Assembly: GCA_030390025.1 (NCBI GenBank)
Contig: CM059432.1
Coordinates: 92,940,001-93,004,000, forward strand
Source: Squalus acanthias
Taxonomy: Eukaryota
Length of the DNA stretch: 64,000 nt
Direction: 5' to 3'
Below the pieces are notes generated by a model that worked only from the letters and a program-made list of their open reading frames with translations, was not told where the DNA came from and searched no databases. The position numbers and the translations under genes are program-made. The first letter of the stretch is position 1; the number at the start of each line of letters is the position of its first letter. Positions 20,946-59,873 of the stretch are shown piece by piece.

Positions 20946-21154
20946 AATTCTATTATTGGAGCAGCGTAGAGCACTTTATGTTGCATCTAAAGCATGCACA
21001 ATCTAGTTTGAAAAAGCAAGTTTTTTTTATTCAGTTCTGATGCCCCTCACTTTACTACAGACCGAAGAAAGAATACTTCAAAAGATTTGTAGTAGAACCT
21101 AATTTGCTTTTAAATTTTTTTTAAAAATCCTCTATGGTTTGTTTTTCTTTTCAG

Positions 21155-22127
21155 GAGTCTGCGATTACATCCAAATCAACAGATGAGATGTACAGTGAGT
21201 ACAAAAGTGATCGAAATGAAATTTCCTATTGTTATCAACTGCTTCAGGAACTGAACGAACAGCGGCAGCAAGGCATTCTGTGTGATGTCAACATTGTGGT
21301 GAAGGGTCAGGTTTTCAAAGCCCACAAGAACATATTAGTTGCAGGCAGCCGTTACTTTAAGACTCTCTATTGCTATACTCCGAATGAGAGTTGTGACCAG
21401 GTCACAGTAACTCACCTCGATGTCGTTGCAGTACAAGGTTTCACAGTTATTCTTGATTTCATGTACTCTGGACATTTGGTTTTAACCAGCCAGAATGTAA
21501 TTGAGGTAATGTCTGTAGCAAGCTATCTACAAATGACTGACATTGTTCAGGCTTGCCGTGGTTTTATAAAGGATGCCCTAAACATCAGTACAAAATCTAA
21601 TGCGGCAGAGAAAATAATAATGCAGTATGAGAAGGTAAAAGTCTCCAACAGATCCCATAGAGACAACACAGTAGCCATGTTGAAACATGAGCCCAGCAGT
21701 CCTTGGATAGTCAAAACTACAAGTACAGTGAATAACTGTGCTGCAGGAGGCCTGCATGAAGAAAGAGCTAGGTATGAAATGGAGGGCTATAGTTTTGATA
21801 TGGGTTCAGTAATGGACCAGAATGAGAGCTACCAGATTAATGATTCAGCCTGGACTCAAGATAACTTTTCAGATTATGGTGGAAAAGATCTGCAGATGGG
21901 GCTACCTCAAGATCAGAGTTCTGCTTTTTCGTGGGGAAGTTTGGGAAAACTAATGTTGCATCAGACAGTGCCTCGAAGCGGACGAAGGAAAAACCACATA
22001 ACCAGAAGAATTGTCTACAATGTTGCACCAAAAGTTGAAGAGGGAGTTGGAGATAACTTGATGATACAGCCACCCATGGCATTTTCTGAGGATGGATTAC
22101 AGGAAATTCCTGTAGACGCATTTGCAG
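21155..22127 (+). CDS. ZBTB10: ZBTB10(-like) BTB/POZ-domain exon (phase 0 start, phase 1 end)
   Basis: Encodes EISYCYQLLQELNEQRQQGILCDVNIVVKGQVFKAHKNILVAGSRYFKTLYC...FIKDALNIS, matching the recalled ZBTB10 BTB domain, plus ZBTB10-like linker motifs (YQINDSAWTQD, RRKNHITRRIVYN, IQPPMAF). Acceptor tttttcttttcag|GAG at 21154/21155; donor GCAG|gtactg at 22127/22128. Confidence 0.9.
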
Positions 22128-22289
22128 GTACTGTATACGTAGGTCAGTCAAGAAATGTAAGAAAAGCATGTAACACAAGAAGTCACAGTGCATTGGTGTT
22201 TTTTGTTTCCTGTACAAAGTTTCTCCCTTTTCCTGAAGGCAGTAACTTATGGAGTATTTCCACAGGTGCCAGGGAATATTTAGAAATAG

Positions 22290-24200
22290 AAGACACAACA
22301 TGAAAATAGGCCATTTGTCAGCGTTTATCATCCATGCGAGCAAATAACCCAAATCATATTTACCTACACTGTTTCCGTATCCCTTTTCTTTTGTCCACCT
22401 ATCCAATCTAATCTTGAATATTGACAGTTCCTGCCTCTCTCTCCAACCCTGGCAGTGAATTCCATAACCTCACAACTCTGTGTAACATAGTTTCTCCTGT
22501 CCTCTGTTCTAAATCTCTTGCATGTAAACTTGCATGTATGGTCCCGAGTTCTTGACTCCTCAACTACTGGAAACAGTCTGCTTCTGTCTACCCTGTTCCA
22601 TCCTTTCAAAATTTTAAACACTTGTATTATACCACCCCATAATCTGTGTTGTCCTAAAGAAAAAAGCCCCAATTTTTCAATAATCTTCCTCTAGCGTGGA
22701 GCCCAATACTATACACAGTACTGTAACCAAGATCAGTAACAATAATGTTTTATATAGACTCTTATTTATCTCTTCGCTTTCTATTCTATACCTCGTGCTA
22801 AAAGCTAGGATTCCATAAATTTTTATTTAACCCGAGGTGCTGTCTCTAATGTCCTGTGAACTTGTACCTCCAAATCCTTTTGCTTTTCCGCAGCACTGCA
22901 CCTACTTTCATTCAGAGTATAGTTACTGCTAAAATTTTTTTACCAAAGTGTATCACATCGCACTTGCTGACATTGAATTCCATCTGCCACAATTTGGCCC
23001 ATTCCCCTGCCTTATCAAAATCCCCATGTAGCTTCCTTGGGGCTTTTAAAGAATTAATTACACCTTCTATTTTGATATTGCATGTAAATTGTGACCCCAC
23101 ACCCTAGGCTTAAATCCAAATAATTGATATACACAGTGAACGAAAGCAGCCCCAGAACTGAACCCTTTGGGACACCGCTACCCACTTTCAACCACTCTGG
23201 AAAAAATCTTCCCTTTAATGCCTACTATCTGTTTTCACTCTTCTAACCAGGTTGCCATCCTCCCCCTAATTAGGTCCCCTTCAATCTCTCGTAATTTGCA
23301 GTGTAGTACCTTGTCAAAAGCTTTCCTAAAGTCCATTCACACTACATCCACTGCATTTTCCCCATCTACCATGTCTGTAACCTTCTCATAATTCTGAGGT
23401 TTATAAAGCAGGATTACCTTTTTGAAATCCATCCTGGCTACTTCTAGTGGTTTCTCTTTCATCCTTAATTAAAGACTATAATTTTTTCCTACCACAGATG
23501 TTAAGCTAACTGGCCTGTAGTTATCCAAATTCATTATTACTTTTTCCCCCCCATTCTCCAGGTCTCTGGCACTCATCCACACTCAATAGAGCCCTGAAAT
23601 ATCATTTCTAGGGTCTCTGCAATTTCTGTCCTCGTCTCCTTCAGAATCCTAGGATGTATCCTGTCCAGCCCTGGTGCTCTGTCTTCTTTTAGCCTAACGA
23701 ACTTCCCTAAAATCTTTCTTTTCTTCATAATATTTCTCACCTCCGTCACAGCCACTTCATGATTCACCTCCTCTTCGATATCCTCCGATGCAAAGTGCCA
23801 CCTCTGCCATTTTCTGATCATCAACTGCAAATTGACAATCCTCTCCTCGGGTCCTACCTCTCTTTGAACAATTCTCTTTTTACTGATATACTTGCAAAGC
23901 AATTTACTGTTCCTTTTGATTTAAAAAAAAAAAATGTCCTCATATTCAGCCTTAGATTTCCTTATCCTGCTCTTAACCTCTTTTCTAACATTCTTATTCT
24001 CTAGTTTTTTCGTTGCTATAATTCTTGTAGTCCTCATTGGTTCTCTTCAATTTTAATTGGTTCATAACTTTCATGGCATCCTAATACTACCAGTAGTTTC
24101 CTTTTTTAATAGAATATATTTATTCTGTAGCTTTGATTTAAAAAAAAAAACCACACCCCACTGTTGCTCTACAGTCCTTTTCTGGCAATGTTTCCTTCCT
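22290..24200 (-). mobile_element. Degraded CR1 LINE ORF2
   Basis: WAKLWQMEFNVSKCDVIHFG, RAPGLDRIHPRILKE and GLFSLGQHRLWG on minus. Confidence 0.8.
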
Positions 24201-34885: not shown

Positions 34886-36708
34886 AAAAATTAAAAAAAA
34901 TTTGGAAAGGATAAACATCATAATACGTAGAAACAGCAGGGAAATGCGATTTGAGTAGTTGGCTCCAGTTGAAGGGTTGATACTGTCACAGACATGATGG
35001 ACCAAATGGGCTCCCACTGCCATAATTTATGTAAGAAACATTTTCTACTGAAATCAGAGTTTTAGATTTGTTTTCGAGTAACATATTTGAAAATTTGCAA
35101 ATGGACAGCTAATTCTCAACAGTCTATCCTGTGAAGGTTAAGTTTAGTTTACATCTTTCAACAAGTGAAGCAATCTATAGAAGGCAAGGTATTCAGATAA
35201 CTTAAAGGTGATGCAAAATATATTGAGCATTCTTGGAGTTTGAACAGCTGGACCTAAATGGAAATCTTGCTTGTAAGCAGATTGGCTTACTGAATTTGAA
35301 GTTTAGTTATGTTGAAATGGAAACCAGTAGCTGAAACTCGAATTCTTAAGTGCAGCTTCATAACTCTTTTGCATTGAAAGAGTAATACCTTATTCAGAAT
35401 CCAGTGGGAAAGACTGTTCTGACAAATTGGGAGAGTAGCTTCGCACAAAGTGGGAGGAATACTACAAAATTCATTATTATCTAAATCCCATTATTGACCA
35501 ATTCTATATTGTAACGTCCTTGGATTAGGAACAGAAGATGGTTCTTGCATTGAAATTTTATGCATGAGTTGGAATTGTCCTGTCTTCAGTTACTGCTACT
35601 TGTGAATAAAACTAATAAAAATAAAACATTGGTATACTCAAGAGTATTGTGCATTTGTTGCAGATAGAACATGCCTGAGCAATTCTGCAAGTGAACAGGC
35701 TGCAATTGTCCTTGTAATTATAATGCAATCTCTGCTGGCTCCAGATTCTGTGATCATTCTGTTAAATTTCAATGCACAGCAGAATTAATTCATTTAACTT
35801 TCACTACAACCAGATCTATTGTATGACTTTTTTGGAAATGCAAAGCCTGGTCTAGACTCATTGCTGAAAGATGATACAAGATTATCAAATCTTGTTTCTT
35901 CATGTAGAAATCAAATGGTCTGGGTCAACACGCCACTTCTTCACTCCCAGGTCCGATAGAATTGGCAATGAGCATGGTGTTTAGAAGAGCGTTGCACTGA
36001 TTTTAAAAGGCACTGACGCTTCTGCTCCCAAAAAGCAACCTCCCACAAAATCTGTCAAGTCAGTCCAGTTTGTAGATTCAGCTGTCAATCAAGTCCATTG
36101 CTAACCGCATTTGTCTGAGTTATGACCAATTGTTTTGCTGGGAGAGGGGGTGGGTGTCAAACCCACCTCAAAATAATTTCAAAGGTAAGTGCTACAAAAG
36201 CCAGTAGCTTCCACAAACTGTAGGTAAAATTTTAATAGTTGCATTTATCTGAGGAGAGGGAAGACATGCAAAATTGAGATGACGATAGTTATGTTAAAAT
36301 TTCTGCTTTTTTCGGTCCATTCTATGGCCAAGCAGTTTTAGGAACATTGCTTGTAAAGCCTACCATATATAGTAAGTAGTCCGCTTAAACCTGTTGAACG
36401 CACTAGGTCCCCTATACTCCGTATATATGCAAAGAATAACGGGGGACTGTTGCAACTGACTGAATTGTGTCTCTAATGCATACTTTTTATGCTGTGTGCA
36501 AAATGATGTGCAGTCTATCCAGATATCTGAATTCCAAGAATTTTCAGTTGTACAAAAAGGCTTGATTAACATAGTTTTTTTTGTGCATCATGTAGAGAAA
36601 GTATTTTCATTGTTGGCAATATCGTGCAATATCAGTAACTGAAAATAAAATATTCAAAGTTTTAATAGAAATGTAGTAAATATACTGTACATGAATTCTG
36701 TCTGCTAG

Positions 36709-36884
36709 GTGATGCTTCAATTGGTAGTCAAAACAAGTTCAAGTGCCCGCATTGTAATTACATTGCCAAGTATCGACGCACGTTGAAGAGGCATCAGCTA
36801 ATACATACTGGAGTGCGGTCCTTTGCTTGTGACATCTGTGGAAAGTTATTCACTCGAAGAGAGCATGTAAAGAGACATTCCTTG
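36709..36884 (+). CDS. ZBTB10: ZBTB10 exon encoding the two tandem C2H2 zinc fingers
   Basis: tctgctag|GTGAT...; encodes [50 protein letters not shown]; donor TTG|gtaagt; 176 bp, phase 1-0. Confidence 0.95.
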
Positions 36885-37814
36885 GTAAGTACAATTGCTG
36901 TTTTCAAGAATTATACTTACGTGGATGAAGATTTTAGAATCTTGTGCTTCAAATTGGGCATAAGTTTATTTGAAGACAAACATGGTTGTATATCATACAG
37001 GTTTCGTTTTGCTCGAATCAATGAATGTTCCTTCCCTTAAATGAAAACTAGATAATGCTGAGCCATTTATTTCAGGGGCTATTTTTATTTTGTTAATTGT
37101 ACTTTACATAGCAAAAGATTGGTGAGGGGGATATATTTAATTTATAATAGGCAGCATTTATATTGCTATTCAACAAAATTTAAAAACCGGACAAAGTAGT
37201 AAATGAGCTCCTTGCACTTGTTCGAGGTGAGGGTGGAGGGGAAAGGGGTTGAAGAAGACTGTTGGTAATGGAGTAAAGCAGTTAGGGCATTATCTTTGTT
37301 TTCCAGGATTATGGAGTAGTGGGAGGTTTTGGCAGAGCAGAGTGAGGCCCAATAATGCTTGATGTGTCTGGATGATACTACTAGTTGCGCGCCAGATACA
37401 CTCAAGTCTTGCCCCTTGGCTTGGACTTGAGGAAAGGAAGATGGGGGCTATATCGGGAACAACCAGGATGGGAGAGAATAAATGTTTTGCTGTGGACAAG
37501 GGCATCAAAGGTGGAGATGTGAAAGTGGTTGGTTGAGCAAATCAACCACTGCAGAAGTATTGAGGCAAATGGAGGACCAAAGACTAGGCAGTTGTGGGTT
37601 TGAAACTGTGTTTGTAAGTGACTAGGGAGAGATGCTACACATGCAGTTTCCAATGAGCAGTCATTGGAGAATGAGCAGGAGCAGAAATTCTGGCCAATTT
37701 TTCTTAACAAGGAGACACCAGCGCAATTGTATTCCCACCATCAACTGAGATTGGCTAACTCATCGTGAACCAGGTGCTAGACTTGGAACCACCTTATTCT
37801 ATAATGCTTAGCTA

Positions 37815-56688: not shown

Positions 56689-57417
56689 CTGTATTTGGCA
56701 ATGCAACAAACATCACACAACAAACGTCAGAGAAAGCACGGTATATGAACATGTAATTAGTCCTACATGAATATTTCCACCTAGTTGAATATATCCTTTT
56801 TGACAATTACAAGATTCGACGACTTCTCCCCCACTGCAGTTGGGCACTTTCATTTAATCATGCACACTGCAGCTTGCCTGCTATTTTACATTATGATCAA
56901 GTCCATGTTAATTCAATTGCAGTTGCTACTATCATAACTTACATTACTAAAACAGAATAAATAACTACCAAAATCACCACTATTACTCTGCTGAGGTATC
57001 TTTTTCAACCCATTCTTTGCTCAGTGTGAAAGATATTCGACTCATGCATCAGGTAGGACTAGCTAGATCAGTTGTGGGCAAAACACGGCCCACGGGCCAT
57101 ATCCGGCCCGCCAGTTCATTCTATCCAGCCCGCTTGAGCTGCACATTTGTCTCTGAGTCTTGTGGGGAGGGAGCATGGGGGCCGAGGGAGCATGGGGGCC
57201 GAGGAGAGCTCGCTCAGGGTTACTGTGGCCTGGGAGTAGGCTGTGACCCTGAACCAGGGCAATTAAAAAATAAAGCTGCCAGGACTCCTGAAGCAGATCT
57301 GTTTCCCTTTTGTGTCTCGGAGACGGCCTAACATCTGTCTGCGGCTGTCTCCCACTCCGGCTCTGTGAAACACTTTTCTAAAATTTGCTGCACATCGCTA
57401 GCTGATGGGGGTGCTGC

Positions 57418-57429
57418 TGCGCATGCGCA
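57418..57429. promoter_or_regulatory. Perfect NRF1 palindrome TGCGCATGCGCA
   Basis: Exact motif ending 26 bp upstream of the TPP2-like ATG, in a CpG-rich segment. Confidence 0.6.
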
Positions 57430-57454
57430 CTGGATGCTCCTCCTCTGTCGAGTT

Positions 57455-57583
57455 ATGGCCGCTCATCTCAATGACTCTTTTACCGATGTGTCTTTCCTCT
57501 CCTGGTACCCAGAGTACGACAGCAGGGGAGTTCTCGTCGCCATCTTAGACACTCGAGTGGATCCCGGAGCACAAGGACTCCAG
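57455..57583 (+). pseudogene. TPP2: Isolated, degenerate copy of TPP2 (tripeptidyl peptidase II) exon 1
   Basis: [43 protein letters not shown]|gtaacg versus recalled TPP2 N-terminus ...[31 protein letters not shown]. The PFHGLLPKKETG segment is missing, DTG is DTR, and no other TPP2 exon was recognised in the window. Confidence 0.85.
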
Positions 57584-57785
57584 GTAACGCAATTGTAGTT
57601 CAGGCCTTGCCTCGGGTTTCGGTACTCAGCCCACTTAAAAGAGAACACCTCGAGTCTGAGGCCCCGCAGACTCGAGCCACGCAACATACGATCGATCAAT
57701 CATTTCATTCATTCAATAATGGAAGATTTTACTATCTTACACTACATTTTGTGTATTTAAGATGGTATCTGAAATTATGTTTATG

Positions 57786-57947
57786 TAATGTTCCCTCTAA
57801 TTTTTTTTCGTGCACAGTCCCTTTAAATTTGCTGCGTGGCCGCACATGCCACTTGCGCATTATCTCTTCCAGTGGCAGGAGCTGGTGAGTGGCCTGCGCG
57901 GGACCTTGCAATTGGTGCGTGGCCACGCACCTTAGGGGGAAACGCTG
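57786..57947. mobile_element. Small hAT-like MITE nested in the outer element
   Basis: Imperfect TIRs TAATGTTCCCTCTAA ... TTAGGGGGAAACGCTG. Confidence 0.5.
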
Positions 57948-58269
57948 GTGTGCGGCCCGCAACAGCTCACCAAAACTTAAGTAGCCCTCCAGCCCAAATA
58001 ATTGCCCATCCATTGATGGGGGGTGTAATTTTTTTCAAGTGGTCATTCCACAAAGCTATCTTACTTTATAATTAAGTATATTGTAACACCGAACATAATA
58101 TAGTTGCGAGAATTGAACAGTCTGGCGTCTTGGGTATCAGAGGTGTGTGAAATCGGCCTGAAATTACTTCCCTCTGTCCTTTCCGTATCTGCCCTCGGTA
58201 GCATAACTGATATTGAGATGTCGGAATGAGAAGGAGAATTTGAACTTGTACACAATTCCCAGCATTAGG

Positions 58270-58720
58270 AATGATTGGGGGTCACCAATGATCAGAAACT
58301 TATCTTGATTAGCCATATCAACACCATGGCCATAAGGGCAGGTTAGGGGCGGGGTGCTTTGCAGAATGTGATGGAATACTTGCTTGGATTGGTGCAGTTT
58401 CACCAAGTCAGGAAGCCTGCACCATCCAGAACAGACCATCACTGGTGCACTGTGCCTGCAGTGAGTACTAGCTACAGGTATACACTGCAGCAACTCAAAA
58501 GTTATTTGAATGGCACCTCCTTCCCCATCTTGACCTTTTACATTGAGAATGATAGGAGCAGCATCACCTGCAAATCACACCATCCTGACTTGGACATGCA
58601 TCGCTGTTCCTGGGTCGATATCCTGCAATTCCCTATGTAAGACCATCGTAGGAGTACTCGTGGTTCAATGAGAAGGCCCATCACCACCTTTTCAAGACAA
58701 CTAGAGATGGCACTCCTGCT
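58270..58720 (+). mobile_element. Highly degraded Zenon-like LINE fragment
   Basis: ggggtcaccaatgatcagaaactta, gtgatggaatact and cacaccatcctgacttgg shared with other copies. Confidence 0.6.
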
Positions 58721-59176
58721 TAATCTGATGAATTGTTTTCTAAACCACCTCCCCATTCCAATTAGCCTTCTCCTCCAACCAGAACATACATGCAGCATTC
58801 AATCCAGAGCAAAAGCTGTGAGGGGCAAGTGGTGACAGATTGAAATAGTTTTTGCCAGGGTAAAAGGGTGGAACATTCAAGAAATCTGCAATAAAAATGA
58901 GTTCCAGTAGCCCTGCTTGATGAGTAGGAATCCTGTTCCACGAGTCTTATTAATATTGGACTGTAGATATTACCAGTCAAGCCAAAATTATCTGAACTAC
59001 TTCAAAAACTGTCTGTAATTTCAGCAATGTGGGAAGCACTTTTGGTTTCAAACCTATTATGCATTTTGATTGATGCAGGATGAAATGTGATTATATTAAT
59101 GGCTTAAAGAAATTTAAGTTTCACGATGCAAAATACTACCATCATTTCTGATTTATTTGGGCCTTTATGAATTAAT

Positions 59177-59847
59177 GGCCCAGAAGTTGCAGGAGTGCCG
59201 TGAATTGGATTTTTTTTTACCTCACCCTTCAGATCGTATTTTTACGCTGCAAATTGCTGGAAATGCAAATTGATAACGGTGCATCTGGGACATCATGAAT
59301 GTCGGGTCTAATGGTCTTGTTTCCGTAATAAATTAAACTTCTGGATAAAGCAGCAGAGCAAACAGTGAAGGAAATAGGGTGACTTAGAGTCAAATTAGAA
59401 ACCGAGAAATAAAAAGAGGGCAAGAAAGATTGGATAAAGAGACAAAGGAAAAATAAGAAAAATTTAAATTAAAAAAAAAAAAAATCTCTTGGAACAATTT
59501 ACTACCTGCAGGAGTAAGACTCCACTGTTCTAATTGTTCCCTTTCTAGGCATTCAAGGTTGAGTGGCATGTCAGGACCATAAATCGTGTCATTAACAGGG
59601 TCCTTCCGACATAAAATACCAGCCCTAAATGGCTGCGGCGAGATTCATTTGTACTTGCGGCCCAAATCCAGCAATGTCTTGACACTCATGGGAGGTTGAT
59701 GGCGGAGTGGCGCAAACTGTCCAGCAATTTGTGGTGATTCGCTACTCCTGGCGTATCTCTTCCTTGCCATAGATTACTGTTCTTTTTATGCACTAATAAT
59801 GGCAGGCGTTGTGAACTCGCCATTATTTTTTGAACAATTTCTGGGAA
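59177..59847. mobile_element. Harbinger-like MITE
   Basis: TIR GGCCCAGAAGTTG ... CAATTTCTGGGAA; AAT on both flanks. Confidence 0.55.
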
Positions 59848-59873
59848 AATCTACATATAATATATCAAAATAC

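Follow-up and report, generated by a model that had tools for sequence, protein, structure and literature searches.

Positions 57069-58015 of the window, the 64,000-nucleotide stretch of Squalus acanthias DNA analyzed here, hold one old, decayed copy of a non-autonomous hAT transposon family of the Buster type. In the account we consider probable, this is a Buster-type family of several hundred copies, whose TPP2 piece likely came from genomic DNA during the repair of a break and whose MYBL2 piece was added later from spliced mRNA. The first-pass annotation had proposed a Pack-hAT that captured the promoter, first exon, and splice donor of TPP2. The hAT identity, the exon, and the donor hold, and intron sequence follows the donor, but the promoter does not survive: the captured stretch begins just 66 nt before the ATG, and the GC-rich block at 57159-57446 is MYBL2 sequence with no alignment to TPP2.

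The copy opens with a hAT left end on the plus strand (57069-57133), a terminal inverted repeat with subterminal repeats common to a decayed autonomous family, whose last four nucleotides, CCGC, form a microhomology with TPP2 at -66. The ends are of a kind we take to be Charlie/SPIN-like. Next come a 25-nt remnant of the TPP2 leader, from about -30 to -8 (57134-57158, plus strand), positions -66 to -31 having been lost from this subfamily by a short internal deletion, and the MYBL2 5' leader (57159-57446, minus strand), which lies antisense to the TPP2 piece and matches the gene on contig C11 at 197 of 255 aligned bases. MYBL2 exons 1-3, present in spliced form in longer copies, are deleted here save for 5 nt. 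TPP2 resumes at -8 and runs to the end of exon 1 (57447-57583, plus strand; ATG at 57455), then through the splice donor and intron 1 to +400 (57584-57785, plus strand); the founder form extended to +699. A deletion fuses intron position +400 to the left end of a nested inverted-repeat element of about 160 bp (57786-57947), which in longer copies has its own 8-bp target duplication. The hAT right end (57948-58015, plus strand) has lost its last 4 nt to decay. A left target site of the nnnTAnnn type occupies 57061-57068, and its right duplicate is unrecognizable, as had been reported: AGCTAGAT on the left and ATGGGGGG on the right agree at 2 of 8 positions.

The TPP2-like first exon was called correctly in its ATG (57455), its end (57583), its GT (57584), and its peptide, which matches Drosophila TPP2 (PDB 3lxu, E 3.3e-5) and is 79% identical over 34 aa to shark TPP2 (P0004). 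The closest proteins are those of sharks and rays. At the nucleotide level, 307 of 350 aligned bases equal those of true TPP2 exon 1 and intron 1, a match above chance, and the sequence after 57583 follows intron 1 rather than exon 2. A search of the window with shark TPP2 found no further TPP2 exon, and the real gene lies on contig C7. The reported deletion of about 12 codons is real and can be refined to 11 codons, composed of a family-wide loss of 17 nt and a copy-specific loss of 16 nt. The 17-nt stretch is retained in 0 of 169 start regions (places fetched twice included), and the frame was therefore already dead in the founder; the 16-nt deletion restores it in the window copy by chance. 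The change from DTG to DTR is likewise present, as decay at the level of single copies (108 motif matches with DTG and 6 with DTR, duplicates included). The copy is thus non-coding, as had been claimed, although the cause is the family-wide 17-nt frameshift instead. Its 70-aa frame matches 0 Pfam families. Nothing points to any role for this copy, which is real, old, and non-coding, and whose product is non-coding cargo.

The element does appear to sit inside an unrelated gene, as first described. Splice motifs and phase place it in a putative intron (56689-59873) whose flanking exons are in phase and belong to an unnamed coiled-coil gene on the minus strand. A Pfam scan for this gene (the 150 longest of 462 unmasked frames) gave only weak matches below the cut-off. 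The TPP2 donor is on the strand opposite to the presumed host gene and is therefore unusable by that transcript.

Copies of the family are numerous. With the window element as query, 58 matches were obtained (40 candidates scored of 3232). A genome pattern search with a 19-nt motif from the end of the TPP2 exon, allowing at most one mismatch, found 267 matches, one of them the TPP2 gene itself, against 3 for a control. The motif matched in 82 of 140 distinct fetched copies covering the site, from which we estimate about 450-490 exon-carrying copies, so the copy count suggested earlier as a check comes out in favor of a family; among loci chosen by other modules, 55 of 101 copies have the motif. 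The hAT right end has 519 genome matches against 0 for its control. The first 30 retrieved break down as follows: TPP2 sequence lies within 1.5 kb in 18, the transposase family accounts for 2 and apparent deletion derivatives of that family for 3, another interior is seen in 5, and 2 are unassigned.

Target duplications of 8 bp (7-8 of 8 matching) flank 63 of 97 two-ended copies, compared with 1.5 after shuffling, where the best left end was used if several were in range. These 63 represent 59 distinct target sites, with T at position 4 in 58 and A at position 5 in 54, a central TA that agrees with the nnnTAnnn consensus given for Buster elements in the available text of PMC3517528. The family as a whole thus has the 8-bp duplication, the nnnTAnnn target, and terminal inverted repeats shared with a transposase-encoding element that mark Buster-type hATs, in which such repeats are short (5-27 bp). 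It also has the features of a Pack-TIR: internal host sequence whose parental loci, TPP2 (C7) and MYBL2 (C11), are unflanked by the element, and distinct target sites, which show transposition after capture.

The hAT-type ends proposed at 57069 and about 58015 both occur in a Buster-type transposase family of the same genome. One member, L280, carries both family ends and is flanked by a perfect 8-bp duplication; its decayed transposase shares 68% identity with GTF2IRD2-like hAT proteins (E 2.8e-70). L280 and its relatives share about 62 bp on the left and 205 bp on the right with the non-autonomous family. Homologs of the L280 transposase carry PF14291 and PF18658, and often PF05699; a frameshifted read-through of the transposase itself returned no Pfam family. 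The transposase search gave 31 candidates. Among the 20 loci fetched, 11 have the same right end and 6 the left end, and all 20 show stop codons in their alignments, so that the transposase family looks extinct among the loci examined.

At non-CpG positions, 120 copies differ from the family majority by a median of 5.6% (range 1.7-10.4%), compared with 6.1% for the window copy and 5.2% for the TPP2 gene. A tree of these copies is star-like, which fits one burst. Only 8 of its 118 branches are well supported and the subfamilies are not recovered, so the order of events has to be read from structure alone. The search for an empty orthologous site found none among four other organisms, all of which carry the window insertion: contigs span the boundary between left flank and element in all four, and in two of them the right boundary as well. 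The insertion therefore predates their split. In addition, the cargo keeps residues common to other sharks at places where the present genes differ (a His and a Cys in MYBL2, a Leu in TPP2).

The TPP2 donor gene has its ATG at C7:79,129,509 and its exon 2 at 79,120,955. The founder capture begins at -66, takes in exon 1, and stops at intron 1 position +699; it is contiguous at about 85% identity and lacks exon 2. Long copies, about 1,420 bp in length, start with 62 bp of left end and TPP2 from -66 to +699; a 410-bp piece comes next, and the right end makes up the last 205 bp or so. The left TPP2 junction lies at the CCGC microhomology, 62 nt inside the element, and the right junction is unreadable because no donor is known for the 410-bp piece. 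Run contigs show that the real TPP2 transcript splices at the captured donor into different sequence, namely exon 2. No RNA record holding the TPP2 stretch is on record. Two zero-mismatch contigs from runs guessed to be RNA (two studies) end at TPP2 -49 and -53, a DNA run continues beyond, and one contig from a run guessed to be RNA extends to -206. Cover beyond +699 was absent in one DNA run, and this was not used as evidence.

Rarer long copies hold an extra 200 bp, whose antisense reading is the N-terminus of Myb. A search with this part gave 7 matches from 7 candidates: five are element copies, among them a near-identical pair of duplicates separated by 17 kb, and two are exons that lie 7 kb from each other on C11. 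The latter are exons 2 and 3 of the MYBL2 gene, which matches P0133 (MYBL2b by its source name) along its length. The insert spans the leader from about -300, exon 1, exon 2, and most of exon 3, stopping 10 nt before the end of exon 3. Both introns are exactly removed, although two or three copies have small later deletions at the first junction; there is no poly(A) and at most 2-3 nt of duplication, so that of the usual marks of a processed retrocopy only the intron removal is present. A single junction is common to all five copies. Since exons 1-2-3 are spliced, this piece did not come from the genomic gene and represents a second, RNA-templated capture. Copies without any insert at this spot exist. 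The leader-only form, to which the window copy belongs, arose by later deletion of the MYBL2 exons and was further amplified (98 search candidates, 43 distinct copies). The leader contains an E2F-like motif by our own reading, and Mybl2 is described as an E2F/CLE gene in the accessible part of PMC5716687. The motif is exact in 13 of the 43 copies examined, and a 9-nt deletion has removed it from the window copy.

Further modules record other events. Close to the right end sits the nested 160-bp inverted-repeat element, bounded by an 8-bp duplication of its own, and the transposon was shortened by deletions from intron positions +622 and +400. Insert B, about 205 bp long, lies no more than 4 nt from the MYBL2 site in a different subfamily (L096, L122, L200-L249) and has promoter-like motifs, presumably of the ZNF143/YY1 kind. 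Two independent inserts at one spot suggest a hotspot for breaks. Near-identical insert-B copies are clustered on C26, C1989, C2164, C3245, C3370, and C3876 (L114-L147), and are probably segmental or tandem duplicates, not transpositions. Insert C, of about 430 bp, occurs in a sub-branch; after it comes an inverted piece of the right end, whose 8-bp flank is fixed (L209, L214, L218, L219, L227, L231, L238, L243, L245). A composite subfamily (L268:73-1526, L287-L316; 204 candidates) has two left ends, a fixed inner target, and about 530 bp of captured DNA, segment D, with an exon end and a GT donor. Its outer duplications match at 6-8 of 8 positions in 14 of 14 copies with both outer ends, while the old target site at its inner left end has stayed fixed (14 of 25 exact). 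This subfamily is two neighboring insertions around captured DNA. A sister family with the same ends has a different, GC-rich and promoter-like interior (L269, L275, L276, L258, L267).

Donors for these modules were sought in the same genome and not found. For the 410-bp piece, 310 candidates were obtained, of which 40 were scored and 30 fetched, and none is a donor; the piece has no match in the fetched TPP2 regions or transposase copies, and no Pfam family in six frames. For insert B, 50 of 51 pattern matches were examined and all are element copies, the 51st lying in copy L015. For segment D, the 30 fetched of 40 scored of 204 are all element copies. The corresponding search with insert A, the MYBL2 leader (98 candidates, 40 scored, 30 fetched), likewise failed to reach its donor, which was found solely through the rarer exon part; the other misses therefore say little. 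One locus considered as a donor, L161, was rejected as an ordinary element copy.

The nested structures suggest an order of events. The founder would have comprised the left end, TPP2 from -66 to +699, the 410-bp piece, and the 205-bp right end; the small element would then have nested in it, MYBL2 cDNA would have entered at TPP2 -7, and internal deletions would have led to the 947-bp form. Transposase supplied in trans may have excised the element and left breaks, with gap repair switching template to TPP2 through the 4-nt microhomology. A later break within the element would have been patched by reverse transcription, primed in MYBL2 exon 3 and run to the 5' end of the RNA, which would explain a piece that is 5'-complete, 3'-truncated, and free of poly(A) and duplication. 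The RNA templating of the MYBL2 piece is shown by its exact intron loss, whereas we infer internal priming at a break from that shape together with the mouse zygote insertions in the accessible text of PMC4516963. For TPP2 we prefer DNA gap repair, with unspliced RNA or neighboring insertions also possible.

The earlier argument for capture at the DNA level and against retroposition thus applies at most to the TPP2 piece, the MYBL2 piece being a spliced copy. Even for TPP2, intron retention fits either DNA or unspliced RNA, so the latter may have been the template. Priming in intron 1 of an unspliced transcript and a run to its 5' end at -66 would give the observed piece; the MYBL2 piece proves RNA-templated insertion into the same element, and the contig ends at -49 and -53, near the -66 start, while DNA reads go on, are a weak hint in the same direction. 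One such contig nevertheless reaches -206, the 4-nt microhomology fits DNA repair, another subfamily has a DNA-level capture between two insertions, and insert B carries promoter-like motifs, which are usually located upstream of start sites. An RNA origin of the TPP2 piece therefore seems to us unlikely, though not strikingly so. Capture of TPP2 between two neighboring hAT insertions moving by their outer ends, with later loss of the insertion-bearing allele, is quite unlikely. That Pack-CACTA route is described in the available text of PMC6379663 and seen in the composite sister subfamily, but in the founder the TPP2 piece is bordered by neither an inner end nor an inner target, the fetched TPP2 gene has no hAT end beside exon 1, and the left junction, with its microhomology, is 62 nt into the element.

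It is rather improbable that the MYBL2 piece derives from an earlier processed copy at the DNA level, or is an ordinary retrocopy that LINE machinery inserted into the element. The part of PMC4224331 available describes, in bat Helitrons, both the capture of existing retrogenes and retroposition into the elements, yet none of the 7 candidates is a free copy of exons 2-3, and the 5'-complete, 3'-truncated piece, with no poly(A) and a duplication of at most 2-3 nt, is the reverse of the hallmarks given there. The notion that the segment is a TPP2 gene, processed pseudogene, or segmental duplicate with chance termini is refuted and retains practically no credibility. Although the genome has two TPP2 genes, both are on other contigs with their own exon 1, the two genome matches to exon 2 are both in those genes, and the element copies differ in flanks and target duplications. 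The termini, moreover, match a Buster-type transposase family, and are thus not without a hAT relative.

Known systems share parts of this history. Tan et al. (2021, PMC8277862), in the text available, report four multicopy Pack-TIR cases in 100 animal genomes, mostly hAT, intronless cases having been discarded by design; one, Pack-hAT-N8_XT, took a piece of 5' UTR and has three copies. The shark family resembles these in being a non-autonomous TIR element, as most are of hAT type, with internal host sequence and distinct target duplications, and differs in its several hundred copies and its serial captures, one of them from spliced RNA. In the 12 supplements of that paper searched, TPP2 and MYBL2 are absent and elephant shark scores 0. 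The bat Helitrons HelibatN3, N217.1/N22, and N211/N424 (Thomas et al. 2014, accessible part of PMC4224331) likewise acquired a first exon and then a retrogene, but they are rolling-circle elements rather than cut-and-paste hATs, and what they hold of retrogenes is the 3' part or a 5'-truncated copy with poly(A), whereas the MYBL2 piece is a 5' part without it. A fungal hAT with histone H3 also captured a housekeeping gene and left hundreds of dead copies, but involves one gene inactivated by RIP, and its abstract (PMC6710886) mentions neither serial nor RNA-templated capture. Pack-CACTA elements, as presented in the available text of PMC6379663, capture DNA between neighboring insertions, an anatomy that one sister subfamily matches; they are plant CACTA elements, and their route is seen here in that subfamily, not for the TPP2 step. 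In mouse zygotes (PMC4516963, part available), intronless reverse-transcribed mRNA pieces enter double-strand breaks as the MYBL2 piece may have done, but as single CRISPR-induced events, without the transposon amplification of the shark family. No RNA-templated TIR case is found in the accessible portions of PMC5753468 and PMC13317346. Among open papers, in the text available, we found neither a report of this shark family nor one of a vertebrate hAT that amplified spliced cargo; repeat libraries were outside this scope, and the family may already have a name.

Multicopy capture by cut-and-paste transposons is thus reported as rare in animals, in a survey from which RNA-derived cargo was filtered (PMC8277862, available text), and the shark family is a case of high-copy gene capture in a vertebrate hAT. 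One genome keeps intermediates of at least three routes, namely intron-containing, spliced-RNA, and between neighboring insertions, so that how Pack elements gain sequence can be tested by comparing sharks. The scattered TPP2-like exons can mislead annotation, and the family has also scattered copies of the MYBL2 leader, some with the E2F-like motif.

Contigs from two runs of one study (X6, X10, guessed to be RNA; L077:9462) join the segment D exon of the composite subfamily to an acceptor inside the TPP2-derived exon. This acceptor needs a base seen in 73 of 74 copy matches and absent from the TPP2 gene, and the joined form occurs in 0 of 336 DNA loci examined, which suggests that some family copies are spliced into chimeric RNA. 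A broader conjecture, which we regard as doubtful, is that the family acts as a trap for transcript 5' ends: its breaks would be patched by internally primed reverse transcription of spliced (MYBL2) or unspliced (TPP2) RNA to the cap, and first exons, E2F-type sites, and splice signals would be spread by the hundreds, some into spliced chimeric transcripts.

Three observations stand apart from this history. To our knowledge, TPP2 is single-copy in most vertebrates; here another, divergent TPP2 gene, its set of exons nearly complete, lies at G000:C6:130,982,905-131,099,240 (L039-L050), with about 45-85% identity per exon to shark TPP2. In the C7 gene, exons 2 and 3 are 1.78 Mb apart (77.34-79.12 Mb), likely a scaffolding artifact, with assembly gaps at 79,110,527 and 77,341,620 near each exon. 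The window itself contains, on the plus strand at 21125-22300 and 36669-37037, BTB and C2H2 zinc-finger exons of a ZBTB-type gene.
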